DNA of 64,000 nt from positions 1-64,000 of the IMG/VR virus record IMGVR_UViG_3300046779_001442; one strand, given 5' to 3'. Position 1 is the stretch's first letter. Every line of letters begins with the position of its first letter. Under the pieces are notes generated by a model, which was not told the DNA's origin, ran no database searches, and was given only the letters and a program-made list of their open reading frames with translations. The stretch is from a virus. A program made the position numbers and the translations under genes. Of this stretch, positions 4,685 to 25,962 are shown piece after piece.

Positions 4685-4712
4685 AGGCAGTTTTACATGT
4701 TGCCCAGCATGT
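4685..4712 (-). ncRNA. 3'-UTR H-type pseudoknot motif, copy A
   Basis: Minus strand ACATG-CTGGGCAA-CATGT-AAAAC-TGCCT. S1 is ACATG/CATGT and S2 is GGGCA/TGCCT. Confidence 0.65.
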
Positions 4713-4716
4713 TTTG

Positions 4717-5730
4717 TTATGCGTTAGCCATTACGCCTTGCACAACTTTTAGCAGACGATTCTTTTCTGCATTTATCATTGGGTCAAATCCACTTGCACT
4801 TGCAAGAATAGATTCGTTAGAACCGCCACGTGCAGAGCGATACCAATCCAAACGCTCAGTTAGAGCATTGAAAGCACCCCAAGCAGTGCCAGCAATCATG
4901 CCATTGTAAGTGCCAGTGTAGATGTCGTTGATAACATCAACCTTGTTTTCCCACTTCTTGACAGCACCCTTAGTGTCCTTGTCAGGCTTAGGGTATGCAG
5001 ACAGAATGATGTCGTTGAATTGCTTAGCAGTGACTTCTTGCGAAATCATGGCGTGTGCCATCTTGTCGAATTCGTCCATGTATTTGTTAGCAAGACCAAG
5101 AGTCTCACGTGCAACCGCAATCTTACCTTCTGCAGTTTGCGTGTGGCGAATCTTGAAAGACTGTTTTGGTCCCTTGCCACGTGCCCCAAGAGCAAGATTC
5201 AAAGTGTTAGCACATACAACACGAACAGGTGTAATGCTTGCTTGAATTGCAATCGAACCATCGTGAGAGGTGTTGATTAGAAGATAAGTCTTTACCTTAT
5301 CTGATACGCCGTTAGGGTCAAGAACTGTTTCACGCTCAAGAGCCATGCTACCAAAGACAACACGTCCGCCCTTGATAGAACCAGCAGTTTCCCAACGTCC
5401 GCCACCGTCCAAGATGTTGTCACCGAATGAGAACAAATCTTCATTCTGCAAAACCTTGTAACGCTCACCAACAACGCCAAGAACGTCATTCTGAGACTTC
5501 TCGAATGGGTTAGTGCGAGTAACAAAGAAATAATTCTTGTCACTTGCAAATGAATCAGGAATAGAAACGTCCTCAAGACGAACATTCCAGTTGTCAAGGT
5601 GTGCCTTCTGCAACATCTCTGCAGTAGTAACTTCCTCAGTGAAAACTTCACCAAGGCCATGCCATGCAGGCTCACGAAGAGAAGCGAAAGCAGTTTCGCC
5701 GTTTGCACCTTGTTCTAGTAGATGGGCCAT
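4717..5730 (-). CDS. DUF932 / phage-plasmid-like protein (TIGR03299-type)
   Basis: MAH start, AWHGLG, Y-x-VLQNED, ETAGSIKGGRVVF, YLLINTSHDGS, TPVRVVCANTL, IRHT and GTAWGAFNA motifs. Confidence 0.9.
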   Translation of the reverse strand: MAHLLEQGANGETAFASLREPAWHGLGEVFTEEVTTAEMLQKAHLDNWNVRLEDVSIPDSFASDKNYFFVTRTNPFEKSQNDVLGVVGERYKVLQNEDLFSFGDNILDGGGRWETAGSIKGGRVVFGSMALERETVLDPNGVSDKVKTYLLINTSHDGSIAIQASITPVRVVCANTLNLALGARGKGPKQSFKIRHTQTAEGKIAVARETLGLANKYMDEFDKMAHAMISQEVTAKQFNDIILSAYPKPDKDTKGAVKKWENKVDVINDIYTGTYNGMIAGTAWGAFNALTERLDWYRSARGGSNESILASASGFDPMINAEKNRLLKVVQGVMANA

Positions 5731-5844
5731 GTTGTATCCTTTCGTAGGGGTTTTTCTGTTACTACTATTTTACATCTAGGGTCTGACAATGTCAAGTTAT
5801 ATTGGCAAAAATTTTGGGCGTGTCGTAACGTTTTCGTAACAAAG

Positions 5845-5865
5845 TTATCCACAAAGTTATCCACA
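5845..5865 (+). promoter_or_regulatory. Tandem perfect DnaA boxes
   Basis: TTATCCACA at 5845-5853 and 5857-5865, abutting a GGGGGCTCGCCC site. Another box (TGTGGATAA) lies at 7006-7014. Confidence 0.75.
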
Positions 5866-5898
5866 GGGGGCTCGCCCAGATCGCCAGGGAATGAGGAG

Positions 5899-5928
5899 TG
5901 AGCAGTTTACATGGACGTGCTCAGGTCC
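5899..5928 (-). ncRNA. 3'-UTR pseudoknot motif, copy B
   Basis: GGAC-CTGAGCAC-GTCC-ATGTAAAC-TGCTCA. Confidence 0.7.
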
Positions 5929-5972
5929 CTTAGCATGCAGGCAGAAAGAAAGGATAAAACCTGCAGTACCTC

Positions 5973-6170
5973 TTACTCTACGTTAACCCATTTCATTGCG
6001 GTACGTAGAAGATTGTCATAGTCTCCAGACATAGACTCAGTCATATACTCCTGAATCTCATCCTGAGTTGCTCCACCTTTGCGAAGAGCCTTAGATACAG
6101 CTCCCATGATAGAGAATGCATTACCGTCGTTGCCAGTTAGCTTTACAGTGATTGTTTGATACTTGCTCAT
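5973..6170 (-). CDS. Conserved small phage protein (GxDGNAFSIMG family)
   Basis: LTGNDGNAFSIMGAVSKALRK...SGDYDNLL, a recurrent small phage protein pattern. Confidence 0.8.
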   Translation of the reverse strand: MSKYQTITVKLTGNDGNAFSIMGAVSKALRKGGATQDEIQEYMTESMSGDYDNLLRTAMKWVNVE

Positions 6171-6361
6171 TAGATTATCTCCGTTAGGGTTTCATTGTAT
6201 TCTACATCGCTAGGGTTAGAGAAATCAAATCCTTTACCCTCATAGTCTGCCTCATCTTCAAATCCCTGAAGGACAAAGAACTTAGCAAATGCCTCATCTT
6301 CACTAGTGGCCATAACGCTGTATGACTCACCTGTTAGGATTGTATAGTGTTGCTTTTCCAT
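6170..6361 (-). CDS. Hypothetical protein
   Basis: 63 aa, with TAATG coupling at both ends. Confidence 0.7.
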   Translation of the reverse strand: MEKQHYTILTGESYSVMATSEDEAFAKFFVLQGFEDEADYEGKGFDFSNPSDVEYNETLTEII

Positions 6362-6882
6362 TATGCCATTACCTCTTCCTTTGAGAACTCATTCAAGTAT
6401 AGTTCGGGGGTAGGTAATTTGTCAAGAGCAAACACAACCCTTCTTCCACCATACTGTGAGACAAATAGTCTAGTTTGGAAGTCAATTGTATAGATACCCT
6501 CACACATCAAATCATCTTCAATGAAGTCAATTTGGTTAGATAGGGGCACACGACCAGTTGAATAGGTTACCACCTTGAGAATGTCTGAACCTGTATTTCT
6601 AGTTAGACTAGGATACATTACAGAAAACTTATCGCTGTTATCAATTGTCATCATACCGTCAGGGGTAACGAATGGCTTGTACATCTCTTCCAACTCTGAT
6701 TCAGTAGAGAAGTAGCATTTGAATAGTGCCTTCTCAAGTTGCTCAACAATGTTGTGTCCTGAAGTCAAAAATGATAGAATGTTTAGACCCTGTCCATCTG
6801 GATAGTGGTCCCATTGGCCATACTGTGCGACAACAGTCTTACCAGTTGAATCGATTACCTGTGTGATACCTCTTGTACCCAT
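6361..6882 (-). CDS. Hypothetical protein (MGTRG...QYGQWDxYP family)
   Basis: The N-terminus MGTRG...AQYGQWDHYPDGQG is typical of a widespread phage hypothetical family. It has an RBS and its own promoter. Confidence 0.8.
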   Translation of the reverse strand: MGTRGITQVIDSTGKTVVAQYGQWDHYPDGQGLNILSFLTSGHNIVEQLEKALFKCYFSTESELEEMYKPFVTPDGMMTIDNSDKFSVMYPSLTRNTGSDILKVVTYSTGRVPLSNQIDFIEDDLMCEGIYTIDFQTRLFVSQYGGRRVVFALDKLPTPELYLNEFSKEEVMA

Positions 6883-7036
6883 TTCTTTCCTTCTTTCTTT
6901 TGATACCTATAATTATACATATAGGGTCTGACAAATGCAAATCCAAATCGGCGTGTCGTAAGCCTTTTCTTAATTTGTTACCAAAATGTTACCTGGGGCT
7001 CGCCCTGTGGATAACTTTCGATCAGCTGTGGAAAGT

Positions 7037-7064
7037 TGAGCAGTTTAGACACTTGCTCAGGTGC
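7037..7064 (-). ncRNA. 3'-UTR pseudoknot motif, copy C
   Basis: GCAC-CTGAGCAA-GTGT-CTAAAC-TGCTCA. Confidence 0.7.
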
Positions 7065-7070
7065 TTCCCG

Positions 7071-7250
7071 TTACTTCCCAACAAGGAAGAAACTTGATGC
7101 TGACTTTCGCTTCTGCTTTACGGGAATGTTCTTGGTCTGATTGGTAGCACCAATAAACTTTCCATCTGCCGTGCGAACAACAGCCTTGTAGATTTCACCA
7201 GACTTGGTGTTCCACTTCTCAGTTGCGATTACAATCTTCTTTCGTGCCAT
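7071..7250 (-). CDS. Small basic hypothetical protein (59 aa)
   Basis: MARKKIVIATEKWNTKSGEIYKAVVRTADGKFIGATNQTKN...; AAGGA RBS. Confidence 0.75.
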   Translation of the reverse strand: MARKKIVIATEKWNTKSGEIYKAVVRTADGKFIGATNQTKNIPVKQKRKSASSFFLVGK

Positions 7251-7284
7251 TTCTTTTTCCTTTTCTTTGTTGGGTTTATTAGGG

Positions 7285-7315
7285 TGAGCAGTTTAGCATT
7301 GACTTGCTCAGGTCA
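7285..7315 (-). ncRNA. 3'-UTR pseudoknot motif, copy D
   Basis: TGAC-CTGAGCAA-GTCA-ATGCTAAAC-TGCTCA. Confidence 0.7.
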
Positions 7316-7324
7316 GGTTTCTCT

Positions 7325-7771
7325 TTAGAGAAGTTCCATTACGGAGTTGTAGGTAGAAGCATTTACTTCTTCCTGCTGTGTCATCTTTAGAACCTTTAGG
7401 TTCTTCTTTAGCAAGTCCAACTTAGTGGTGTAGTCCCTACCAAAGTAAGTCTTCTCATTTGGTCGCTGTGGCTCTTCAGGTCGCTTAGGGAAACCAAGTG
7501 CCTCAGTATCAAACTCAACAGACACGCCATTGTAGCGGTAGTTGCCTGTTACACGAACAAGTGAGCCGTTCTCAGTTCCAATGTTGCTTGGGTCAGATAG
7601 TGCCTTGATAGCGTGAGCAATAACATCTTTCTCATACTGCTTTACATCAAGTTCATACTGCTTGCGAAGTCCAGAGTAGTTCTCAATGTCCTGCTCTACC
7701 TTTGCGATTTGTGCCTCAACCTCTGCGATTAGTGAAGCGGTTGGGATTTTGACGGATAGCGATTTTGCCAT
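7325..7771 (-). CDS. Hypothetical coiled-coil protein
   Basis: 148-aa ORF with GAAGGA RBS. Confidence 0.8.
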   Translation of the reverse strand: MAKSLSVKIPTASLIAEVEAQIAKVEQDIENYSGLRKQYELDVKQYEKDVIAHAIKALSDPSNIGTENGSLVRVTGNYRYNGVSVEFDTEALGFPKRPEEPQRPNEKTYFGRDYTTKLDLLKKNLKVLKMTQQEEVNASTYNSVMELL

Positions 7772-7842
7772 TATTTCTTCCTTCTTTCTTTGGGGTTGTA
7801 TCTATTATGCCATTGGGGTCTGACATTTTACACCTTGTGGTG

Positions 7843-7868
7843 GGGTAGTTTATAGTGATACCCAGCAC
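7843..7868 (-). ncRNA. 3'-UTR pseudoknot motif, copy E
   Basis: GTG-CTGGGTAT-CAC-TATAAAC-TACCC. S2 is GGGTA/TACCC, compensatory relative to the other copies. Confidence 0.65.
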
Positions 7869-8028: not shown

Positions 8029-8330
8029 TTTGCTTCCCTTCTATTCATTGTTTTATACCAACTTTTGTTGATAATACTATTGTAGTGGATACCTCTGACA
8101 TTTGTCAAGTCTATTTGATAACATTTTGGTAACAACTATTTACTTTTTGTCTGCTGATTTCCAACTACTATAAGTATGCCACAAGCCACCGACAAAAGCA
8201 AATCCGACACGCCGAAAAATCTGGGAAATTTATAACGAAATCATAACGACACACCGTAATTTGACAAATCTATAAAAATGGGCTCGCCCATGATCGTGCC
8301 AGTTGTCAAGCTGACACGCCATGAGTTTAT

Positions 8331-18552: not shown

Positions 18553-19032
18553 ATGCTAGGTTCATTCGGTTTATGGGCATCTTCCAAGGGTATGAAAGTA
18601 GTTTCAAACCTTGTAGGACAGACTCGTGATGCAGCAAAATCTCAGATTGTGTCTGACGGCTTTATTGTAGGAACCGAAACACCACAGAACTTTACTAATT
18701 CATCTGATGAAGACAAACATGACAAGATTGTAGATCAAACACCAGATGCTGGAGTTTCTGCACAATACGAGTCTCCAGTAGATTTGGTTTATGGAGTCTT
18801 TAGCTTCTCTGTATTTGGAGTTTTTGGATTCTTTAGTGTGTTTAACTTCTTCAGCGTATTTAATTTCTTTAGCGTATTTAATTTCTTTAGTGTATTTGGC
18901 TTCTTTAGCGTGTTTAGCTTCTTTTCCGTATTCGGATTTGCCTTCTCAGTATTTAGCTTCTTCTCCGTATTTGGATTCTCGTTCTCAGTGTTTAACTTTA
19001 CGCCAACATTCTCAGTATTTGGATTTAGATAG
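18553..19032 (+). CDS. PASTA-like domain protein with Phe-rich FFSVF(G/N) repeat tail
   Basis: V-x-NLVG-x-T-x2-AA...GF-x-V...IVDQTP-x-AG...VDL is PASTA-like. About 75 C-terminal residues are F/S/V/G/N repeats ending FSVFGFR. Confidence 0.75.
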   Translation: MLGSFGLWASSKGMKVVSNLVGQTRDAAKSQIVSDGFIVGTETPQNFTNSSDEDKHDKIVDQTPDAGVSAQYESPVDLVYGVFSFSVFGVFGFFSVFNFFSVFNFFSVFNFFSVFGFFSVFSFFSVFGFAFSVFSFFSVFGFSFSVFNFTPTFSVFGFR

Positions 19033-25134: not shown

Positions 25135-25962
25135 ATGGCAGCAGGTAAAAGAGCAGGTAGACACTCTCAGCAGTCAAATGACTTTTTAGAGCCACATGCA
25201 CCAGTTAACGTAGGTGCAACAGATGTTGGAACTAACAGAGCATACAATGACGGTGCTGCCACAGTAACTTTTGAGTTGCCTGCTAACTCACCAGCTGCAA
25301 CATCGTATACAGTAACAGCAACACCTACCGCAGGTGGCTCTTCAATGACTGCATCTGGATCTTCTTCTCCAATCACAGTATCTGGACTTGCGTCTGACAC
25401 TGGATATTCAATTTCTGTGACTGCATCTAACGCTTCTGGATCTTCAGCTGCATCATCTTCAGTTTCTATTACTGCAACAACCGTTCCAGCTGCACCTACT
25501 AGTGTCAGTGCGTCATCTCCAAGCGGTGCATCATATGATACAGTATCTTGGTCTGCACCAGCCAATGGTGGCAAAGCAATTACTAATTATTACATCACTT
25601 CTGATGATGGAAAGTCTGGAAATACATCTGGAACATCTATAGATATTAGCCAAGAGCAAGGAACTTCTCAAACATATACGGTATATGCTGATAACGCAAA
25701 TGGTAGATCTGCTGCCTCAGCAGCATCTAACCAGGTTTCAACATTTTCCTTTGTGCCATTCTCAGTATTTGGCTTCTTCTCAGTATTTGGATTCTTCTCA
25801 GTATTTGGGTTCTTCTCAGTATTTGGATTCTTCTCAGTATTTGGATTTGTTCCTTTTAGCGTATTTAGCTTCTTTGGAGTATTTGGATTTGGACCATTTG
25901 GAGTGTTCGGATTTATTCCATTTGGAGTTTTCGGATTCTTCGGGGTATTTGGGTTTAGATAA
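25135..25962 (+). CDS. Tandem fibronectin type III protein with Phe-rich FFSVFG repeat tail
   Basis: Two FN3 repeats (SYTVTA...V-x-GL-x4-Y-x3-V-x-A-x-N; VSWSAP-x-NGG-x2-ITNY...Y-x-V-x-A-x-N-x2-G-x-S), then about 70 aa of F/S/V/G/P repeats ending FGVFGFR. Confidence 0.85.
   Translation: MAAGKRAGRHSQQSNDFLEPHAPVNVGATDVGTNRAYNDGAATVTFELPANSPAATSYTVTATPTAGGSSMTASGSSSPITVSGLASDTGYSISVTASNASGSSAASSSVSITATTVPAAPTSVSASSPSGASYDTVSWSAPANGGKAITNYYITSDDGKSGNTSGTSIDISQEQGTSQTYTVYADNANGRSAASAASNQVSTFSFVPFSVFGFFSVFGFFSVFGFFSVFGFFSVFGFVPFSVFSFFGVFGFGPFGVFGFIPFGVFGFFGVFGFR
25756..25848 (+). repeat. 18-bp tandem repeat TTCTTCTCAGTATTTGGN
   Basis: About five near-identical copies encoding FFSVFG. Confidence 0.85.

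Follow-up and report, generated by a model that had tools for sequence, protein, structure and literature searches.

The first 64,000 bases (hereafter the window) of a 110.9-kb virus genome with a G+C content of 39.6%, IMG/VR virus record IMGVR_UViG_3300046779_001442, contain five minus-strand copies of a small RNA motif lying past stop codons. We found that the motif is a strongly selected H-type pseudoknot of 26-30 nt. It recurs in hundreds of phages whose hosts represent no fewer than six bacterial phyla, as well as in some mobile elements, yet neither Rfam nor the searchable literature describes it. The stop codon of the upstream gene serves as its anchor, it is transcribed in the same sense as that gene, and its likeliest role, with a probability of roughly 45%, is that of a 3' cap guarding the end of the preceding cistron. 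A sequence-only reading of the window had listed a 3' exonuclease block, a processing signal, a ligand- or protein-binding element and a decoy as possible functions; of these the 3' exonuclease block fits best, being in keeping with the stop anchoring, with copies that close transcription units and with tRNA genes lying 2-8 nt downstream, whereas antitoxin mimicry is unsupported, as are ligand binding and self-cleavage.

The fold can be written as S1 (3-6 bp)-CU-GRGYA-D-S1'-nnAAAC-URCYC, in which S1 and S1' form the first stem, CU is the first loop (L1) and GRGYA pairs with URCYC to form the second helix, P2. The consensus is S1 (with a C-G closing pair)-CU-GAGCA-D-S1'-NN-AAAC-UGCUC-A, and the flanks are G-poor. 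We gathered 147 distinct sequences with a model encoding S1 only, so that P2 lay outside the search model. Pairing was found in 95.7% of the cells of S1 and 99.7% of those of P2, with compensatory changes at all four S1 pairs and at three of the five P2 pairs; the two-sided changes in P2 were G-C to A-U, A-U to G-C and C-G to U-A, with G.U intermediates. As a control, sliding the partners by one to three columns lowered pairing to 24-45%. When P2 was not required, the number of P2 pairs was bimodal, with five of five in 115 candidates and four of five in nine, the rest being background. G.U pairs were found on the coding strand only, and since the opposite strand would have A-C mismatches at these places, the fold is one of RNA, not of DNA, and is read in the direction of the genes. 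The covariation of both helices upholds the earlier proposal of a structured H-type pseudoknot family and indicates that the fold is under selection.

Exact-pattern scans of IMG/VR pointed in the same direction. The pattern CTGAGCA..AAACTGCTC occurred at 119 or more loci, and the 139 matches listed include 122 with a correctly offset S1 of 3 bp or more and 89 sharing a 7-nt gap. In a swap test, the matched combination GGGUA..UACCC occurred at no fewer than 116 loci, and among the 89 distinct sequences in the matches listed, 68 had an S1 of at least 3 bp and 67 the 7-nt gap. The mismatched combination GAGCA..UACCC occurred at 56 loci in the whole collection, with flat gap lengths and with an S1 of at least 4 bp in none of 29 distinct sequences; a non-complementary combination of loop and tail is present at chance level only.

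All five copies that the sequence-only reading had placed on the minus strand of the window were located, each with a first stem that differs from the others (3-5 bp) and nevertheless pairs, an 8-nt loop CUGRGYAN, and a loop and tail that covary as had been claimed. Copy 1 (7868-7843; 30.6 bits against the covariance model) has S1 GUG (7868-7866)/CAC (7857-7855), L1 CU, P2 GGGUA (7863-7859)/UACCC (7847-7843) and the linker UAUAAAC, and its CUG follows the TAA of a 50-aa open reading frame (ORF; 8028-7876) after 10 nt. Copy 2 (7315-7286; 28.6 bits) has S1 UGAC/GUCA, P2 GAGCA/UGCUC and the linker AUGCUAAAC; it is located between a 148-aa and a 59-aa ORF, with CUG 13 nt past the stop of the former (7771-7325) and the latter (7250-7071) beginning 35 nt downstream. 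Copy 3 (7064-7038; 41.9 bits), with S1 GCAC/GUGU (one G.U pair) and P2 GAGCA/UGCUC, has its CUG 10 nt past the stop of that 59-aa ORF, and is followed by a DnaA box, a GGGCGAGCCCC hairpin and a promoter. Copy 4 (5928-5900; 28.5 bits), with S1 GGAC/GUCC, P2 GAGCA/UGCUC and the linker AUGUAAAC, has its CUG 48 nt past the stop of a 65-aa ORF (6170-5973), and is followed by a GGGCGAGCCCC hairpin, two DnaA boxes and then the promoter of the DUF932 gene. Copy 5 (4712-4685; 36.0 bits), with S1 ACAUG/CAUGU and P2 GGGCA/UGCCU (one G.U pair), has its CUG 9 nt after the TAA of the DUF932 gene (5730-4717). The stop-to-CUG gaps of copies 1 to 5 (10, 13, 10, 48 and 9 nt) thus agree with the description of four copies close to a stop codon and one about 45 nt away.

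These copies stand out clearly from the rest of the genome. A scan of the window for complementarity of loop and tail together with AAAC returned these five only, and an IUPAC pattern run over the whole 110.9 kb found five matches on the reverse strand, none on the forward strand and none with a reversed-pattern control. With a covariance model built mostly from sequences of other phages, the five copies scored 28.5-41.9 bits and the next best site in the genome 12.2. The half-motifs alone were not enriched (42 CTGRGYA vs 34 expected, and 11 AAACTRCYY vs 6), and the signal resides in their combination. Nested folding with ViennaRNA, which is unable to represent a pseudoknot, chose either S1 or P2 alone, with energies of -3.8 to -6.6 kcal/mol.

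The five copies span 3.2 kb of small minus-strand genes with sigma-70-like promoters. Copies 3, 4 and 5 form the ends of three transcription units, each being followed by a GGGCGAGCCC hairpin, a TTACGACACGC box and the next promoter, and no copy is present between genes of the window that overlap start-to-stop. The copies are dispersed, 0.2-1.2 kb apart, with differing stems, and this bears on the suggestion that they might mimic type III antitoxins. A ToxI-like antitoxin is not supported: the region contains no tandem array, its neighbouring proteins lack toxin domains, nothing resembling ToxN is encoded nearby, and the motif occurs with many unrelated hosts.

Past the stop codon, the motif has a preferred position. 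The distance from stop to CUG has a floor of 9 nt, with 22 copies at 9 nt, 15 at 10 nt, 65 of 140 at 9-13 nt and five below 9 nt, and many others lie 20-190 nt past the stop. The GGGUA class, sampled independently, showed the same floor, with 16 copies at 9 nt and five below. Since the S1 strand occupies 4-5 nt, the spacer between stop and S1 is 4-8 nt, and about 4-5 nt at the floor itself. Given the geometry of the mRNA channel, such a spacer would be the closest at which a structure stays folded with the stop codon in the ribosomal A site, and the knot would therefore sit at the nearest position that a terminating ribosome need not unwind. In long intergenic spacers, the motif was on the stop side in 21 of 51 cases and on the start side in seven. 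Among environmental phages, the commonest upstream gene family was DUF932 (15 of 91), followed by Hsp20 and SSB; no downstream family was dominant, the commonest accounting for 3 of 95.

A spacer of 4-8 nt, which places a knot at the mRNA entry channel, is also that of frameshift and readthrough pseudoknots, and we therefore considered a signal directed at the ribosome, which would tune termination, drive readthrough or frameshifting, or block sliding of the ribosome to the next cistron after termination. This appears quite unlikely. Reading on in frame beyond the stop adds a median of about 7 codons, too few for a readthrough pseudoknot of the murine leukaemia virus (MuLV) type although the spacing would suit one; the -1 and +1 frames stay open for medians of only 8 and 4 codons; and a slippery heptamer was present in only 3 of 94 copies, so that a -1 frameshift pseudoknot of the beet western yellows virus (BWYV) type was likewise rejected. 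In addition, 68% of the upstream stops are UAA, the tightest stop codon, and the many copies at 20-190 nt lie too far from the stop to fit.

A protein search, blind to RNA, gave 557 IMG/VR contigs with relatives of the window DUF932 protein. Among the best 80 of these (79-98% identity), 72 had the pseudoknot 9-39 nt past the stop and three more had near-variants, and both helices covary at this orthologous site. At 60 of these DUF932 loci, a tRNA-Asp gene on the same strand begins 2-8 nt (mode 4) past the last base of P2. The same tRNA spacing was found in 14 of 136 and 8 of 131 copies of the pattern-seeded sets, before nine other tRNA species, and in Arthrobacter phage Molivia a tRNA-Gly gene begins 3 nt after the motif, the distinct pseudoknot-tRNA junctions being 62. 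The motif at the orthologous DUF932 site and the tRNA-adjacent copies are new here. Counted over distinct tRNAs, the motif was present at 50 of 53 and 15 of 67 ORF-to-tRNA junctions and at 1 of 58 tRNA-to-tRNA junctions, and never directly after a tRNA among those examined; it marks the former and not the latter kind of junction. In the annotation of uncultured phage genomes, it may thus serve to pinpoint the ends of genes and to flag ORF-tRNA co-transcripts.

Because tRNA genes begin 2-8 nt downstream, leaving no room for a promoter, the knot must be transcribed through, which argues against an intrinsic terminator. The post-gene location and a mild enrichment of U after the motif would suit a terminator variant, and the size and topology are reminiscent of the preQ1-I riboswitch and of ToxI. 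In 71% of copies, however, P2 is followed by A, and at the next positions the share of U is only 41-45%, most copies having no U-tract; the motif has no Rfam match, preQ1 included, and is not found in 5' untranslated regions (UTRs); and the copies are neither in tandem nor near a toxin gene. Terminator variant, riboswitch and antitoxin decoy, taken together, are the least probable of the explanations considered here.

The A after P2 and the adjacent real tRNAs recall another arrangement, in which a coaxial S1-P2 helix followed by A-CCA would mimic a tRNA acceptor arm and be handled by the CCA-adding enzyme or by RNase P or Z. ACCA is the commonest tetramer after P2 (13 of 134), and ACCAUUU leaders precede tRNA-Asp. 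Nevertheless, CCA is found in only about 10% of copies, many of them interrelated, the helix has 9-11 bp and no T-loop, and slots inside tRNA arrays are avoided (the 1 in 58 above), making such mimicry very improbable.

If the knot is a 3' cap, we propose that the compact pseudoknot would act mechanically at the end of the cistron, requiring no dedicated partner protein. The transcript would be cut or trimmed downstream and 3'-to-5' exonucleases would then halt at the knot. Where a tRNA follows, the cut would come from RNase P: because of the adjacency, cleavage at the first base of the tRNA would leave a message ending in the knot plus 2-8 nt. Elsewhere, the end may be supplied by further endonucleases, by exonucleases trimming back from a terminator, or by readthrough RNA. 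For PNPase, RNase II and RNase R, a tail of 2-8 nt would probably be too short for efficient reloading; the upstream frame would retain its stop codon and a tail of this kind, and each cistron of a long early or late message may in this way gain its own lifetime. The same triplex-type architecture may also halt machines arriving from the 5' side, and the two activities are not mutually exclusive.

Several observations weigh against the 3' cap. P2, which is the first helix met by a 3' exonuclease, has only 5 bp including A-U pairs; the conserved AAAC linker would reinforce S1, the stem that in frameshifter and exoribonuclease-resistant RNA (xrRNA) knots resists unwinding from the 5' side; and the extra hairpin after copies 3-5 could itself protect the 3' end. 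The motif also seems dispensable in Mycobacterium phage Patience, since it is absent there after the gene that carries it in the close relative Labelle. Finally, its position before scaffold and capsid genes in four groups of Firmicutes phages would equally suit protection of a highly expressed downstream segment.

This last point is best considered together with the occurrence of the motif, which we found in more than 200 IMG/VR contigs as well as in cultured phages. Searching the latter by blastn with two copies and then with the covariance model, we confirmed single copies in Mycobacterium phage Labelle, Arthrobacter phage Molivia, Cyanophage S-RIM4, Synechococcus phage S-H35, Paracoccus phage ParKuw1, Staphylococcus phages 80 and B236, Lactobacillus phage phiEF-1.1, Streptococcus phage Javan383 and Geobacillus phage D6E; about 85 Staphylococcus phage records have the same blastn match. 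Matches of the first blastn query to Staphylococcus myoviruses were rejected as spurious, involving only the A-rich flank and lying inside coding sequences. The carriers are unrelated phages (Kyanoviridae, Autographiviridae, Patiencevirus, Phietavirus and others). In the unrelated Staphylococcus, Lactobacillus, Streptococcus and Geobacillus groups, the motif lies between portal or minor-head genes and the scaffold and major capsid genes.

That position, on the upstream side of the scaffold and major capsid genes, lends support to the main rival of the 3' cap, a barrier of the xrRNA type at which RNase J, the ribosome or another 5'-to-3' translocase would be halted after consuming or traversing the upstream cistron, so that the downstream segment survives. 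The core geometry resembles that of the coremin xrRNA (PMC6546385, PMC10321173, PMC10520033), and a flaviviral xrRNA blocks bacterial RNase J1 in vitro (PMC5760640). Most of the cultured hosts (Firmicutes, Actinobacteria, cyanobacteria, Paracoccus) belong to RNase J-bearing groups, and RNase J is encoded in 11 of 15 motif-carrying bacterial genomes, which is not clearly above background. We consider such a 5'-side barrier possible but distinctly less probable than the 3' cap. The motif keeps to the upstream stop codon rather than to the downstream start, closes transcription units with no downstream gene on the same message, and precedes tRNAs that RNase P would free regardless; the second hairpin needed by coremin is absent; and a copy is carried by a Vibrio phage lineage, Vibrio being a gammaproteobacterium that is not known to have RNase J.

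The Vibrio copy, in phage D456, is atypical, with L1 = CC and no stop anchoring. It lies within a non-coding stretch of about 250 nt (locus L250, 2230-2700) annotated with tiny minus-strand ORFs, in which a second CUGAGCA is found 190 nt upstream of the copy, and it may be part of a larger non-coding RNA. In Labelle and Patience, homology stops at the stop codon of the shared gene; as the divergence begins there and includes the pseudoknot, the motif can be gained or lost within a small indel. Between this gene and tRNA-Gln, Labelle (locus L251, 2493-2700) is about 160 nt longer than Patience (locus L254, 1394-1452).

In a scan of bacterial genomes, about 18 of 122 pattern matches were true copies, found in Saccharibacteria, Clostridia, Eggerthellaceae, Calothrix and Anaerolineae, one Calothrix copy following an ArdA antirestriction gene; the proteobacterial rows were rejected as chance matches. 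Four complete relatives of the window phage (105-117 kb) have 4-7 copies each, clustered in 3-6 kb, with extra copies after Hsp20 genes. The closest cultured relatives are Streptomyces phages of the Stanwilliamsviridae, which are distant (55% amino-acid identity in the DUF932 protein and 46% in the portal); megablast of the window region against cultured phages gave no match, and Streptomyces phage Jay2Jay has no copy.

Clustering in one early-gene module, in the window phage and its four relatives, would also be in keeping with a recognition or processing signal, in which the surface formed by CU, AAAC and P2 would be bound by a phage protein or by a conserved endoribonuclease or RNA chaperone of the host, which would cut or regulate the message there. 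CU, AAAC and the A after P2, which are single-stranded or at junctions, are conserved beside freely varying stems. AAAC-U is invariant, whereas the last loop base varies (U in 67, A in 53, C in 12 and G in 2), and of 134 copies, 110 have a distance of 6 nt between S1' and AAAC, 22 a longer and two a shorter one. Triples in compact pseudoknots are, however, formed by exactly these conserved residues, the carrier phages are unrelated, which makes a common phage protein unlikely, and no co-occurring gene was found, although no systematic search for one was made. A signal of this kind seems improbable, if less so than one directed at the ribosome.

Other repeated elements accompany the copies in the window. 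The GGGCGAGCCC hairpin, identical in sequence, has five minus-strand copies (4634, 5877, 7005, 8289 and 9635), of which the one at 8289 has a T-run and scored as terminator-like; since its stem is invariant, the hairpin could be a terminator or a protein site. The TTACGACACGC box has three minus-strand copies (4525, 5828 and 6961) upstream of sigma-70-like promoters, and TGTCAGACCC is common to the spacers of those promoters, with five minus-strand copies (5788, 6933, 7825, 10918 and 12241); box and spacers together look like a shared operator or a promoter class of early genes. Seven perfect DnaA boxes (TTATCCACA) are present in the first 15 kb, at 377, 419, 431, 5845, 5857 and 14747 on the plus strand and at 7014 on the minus strand, and none in the other 96 kb. 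Three of them lie closely downstream of pseudoknot copies 3 and 4, and the region could be an origin or could titrate DnaA. Short imperfect direct repeats (78-97% identity) occur within and between 18829-18998 and 25754-25891, in the plus-strand structural region.

Variation was also seen around the core of the motif. In loop-insert variants (locus L076, 6624-6673, and locus L085, 3081-3145), an extra hairpin replaces the last loop bases. Among the window copies, a small hairpin directly downstream is present in copy 1 only, and the 30 nt downstream of the motif had a mean folding energy of -2.42 kcal/mol, compared with -2.74 for a control window and -1.99 for shuffles.

Comparison with Rfam gave no family at the gathering threshold or at E<=10, preQ1 included, in line with the earlier statement that the motif belongs to no named family, and the searchable literature held no description of it, the phage structured-RNA catalogue paper (PMC10690425) lying outside the search scope. 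Among known RNAs, preQ1-I (RF00522) is similar in size (about 34 nt), in its H-type topology and in its A-rich linker, but it belongs to the 5' UTRs of queuosine genes, whereas the phage motif follows stop codons and its P2 is clear of the ribosome-binding site. The luteovirid frameshifters of BWYV and potato leafroll virus (PLRV; PMC10321173) share with it the 26-30 nt H-type fold, an L1 of 1-2 nt, a single junction nucleotide, an A-rich third loop ending near the junction and a position 4-8 nt past the A-site codon; in the phage motif, however, that codon is a stop, and there is neither a slippery heptamer nor an extended -1 frame.

The 3' stabiliser hairpins, repetitive extragenic palindromic (REP) elements and RNase III sites of T7 early mRNA are thought to set segmental stability, and like the phage motif they are intercistronic and lie just past stop codons. 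They are simple or long hairpins, whereas the phage motif is a pseudoknot with invariant residues of the tertiary-contact type, shared across phages of many phyla.

The closest structural counterpart is the coremin motif of xrRNA-C and its Watson-Crick variant xrRNA-WCC, which come from beny-, cucumo- and other eukaryotic RNA viruses. In coremin, a 4-bp hairpin with an obligatory C-G closing pair and a YGAD or YGNNAD loop precedes the spacer UU-AAAC-UAC, whose AAA and CU are essential and which tolerates insertions at its 5' end only; a second hairpin is required to stall Xrn1, and in xrRNA-WCC the loop pairs with the bases after AAA (PMC6546385, PMC10321173, PMC10520033). The phage motif likewise has a short first hairpin (3-4 bp in the comparison, mostly 4 bp in phages) with a C-G closing pair in 139 of the 147 sequences (G-C in the other eight, window copies 1 and 5 among them), a loop that begins with a pyrimidine, contains G and ends in A plus a non-C base, two tolerant nucleotides before AAAC-U with linker insertions at the 5' end only, pairing of the loop with the bases after AAAC, a total length of about 25-30 nt and a 3' UTR or intergenic site. 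It differs in that its loop is 8 nt (CUGRGYAD) instead of 4 or 6, so that only Y, G and the terminal A-D agree, in that its P2 has five Watson-Crick pairs instead of 0-3, in that no second hairpin was found downstream, where the folding energy is close to that of the control, and in that it lies, stop-anchored, in the mRNAs of DNA phages whose hosts lack Xrn1. The phage knot therefore matches coremin in architecture but fails two of its defining features.

For the tRNA-adjacent copies, the nearest parallel is the 3' end of MALAT1, which RNase P generates by cutting upstream of a tRNA-like element and which a triple helix shields (PMC8457004, PMC4824109). As in MALAT1 and MEN-beta, a structure putatively of the triplex type would lie directly 5' of a predicted RNase P site and, to judge from the geometry, which is present at the 62 distinct junctions, would be left at the 3' end after cleavage. 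The downstream element is here a real tRNA gene, found at only about 10% of copies, and a 26-30 nt pseudoknot in a bacterial context replaces the element for nuclear expression (ENE) that clamps an A-rich tract, cleavage and protection being conjectural in the phage case. Taken as a whole, these likenesses tentatively suggest, at odds well below even, that the motif may be the first class of exoribonuclease-resistant RNA of bacteria and phages, a protein-independent "stop-codon guard" with a coremin-like core and, where a tRNA follows, an RNase P-made 3' end, which would be a bacterial counterpart of MALAT1/mascRNA giving single cistrons of phages and mobile elements their own lifetime. If the nuclease barrier is real, it would explain differing expression levels within one phage transcript and offer bacterial synthetic biology a tiny portable mRNA-stabilising part, and the tricks of the xrRNA and of the triple helix with RNase P, known from eukaryotic RNA viruses and nuclear long non-coding RNAs, would operate in bacteria too.

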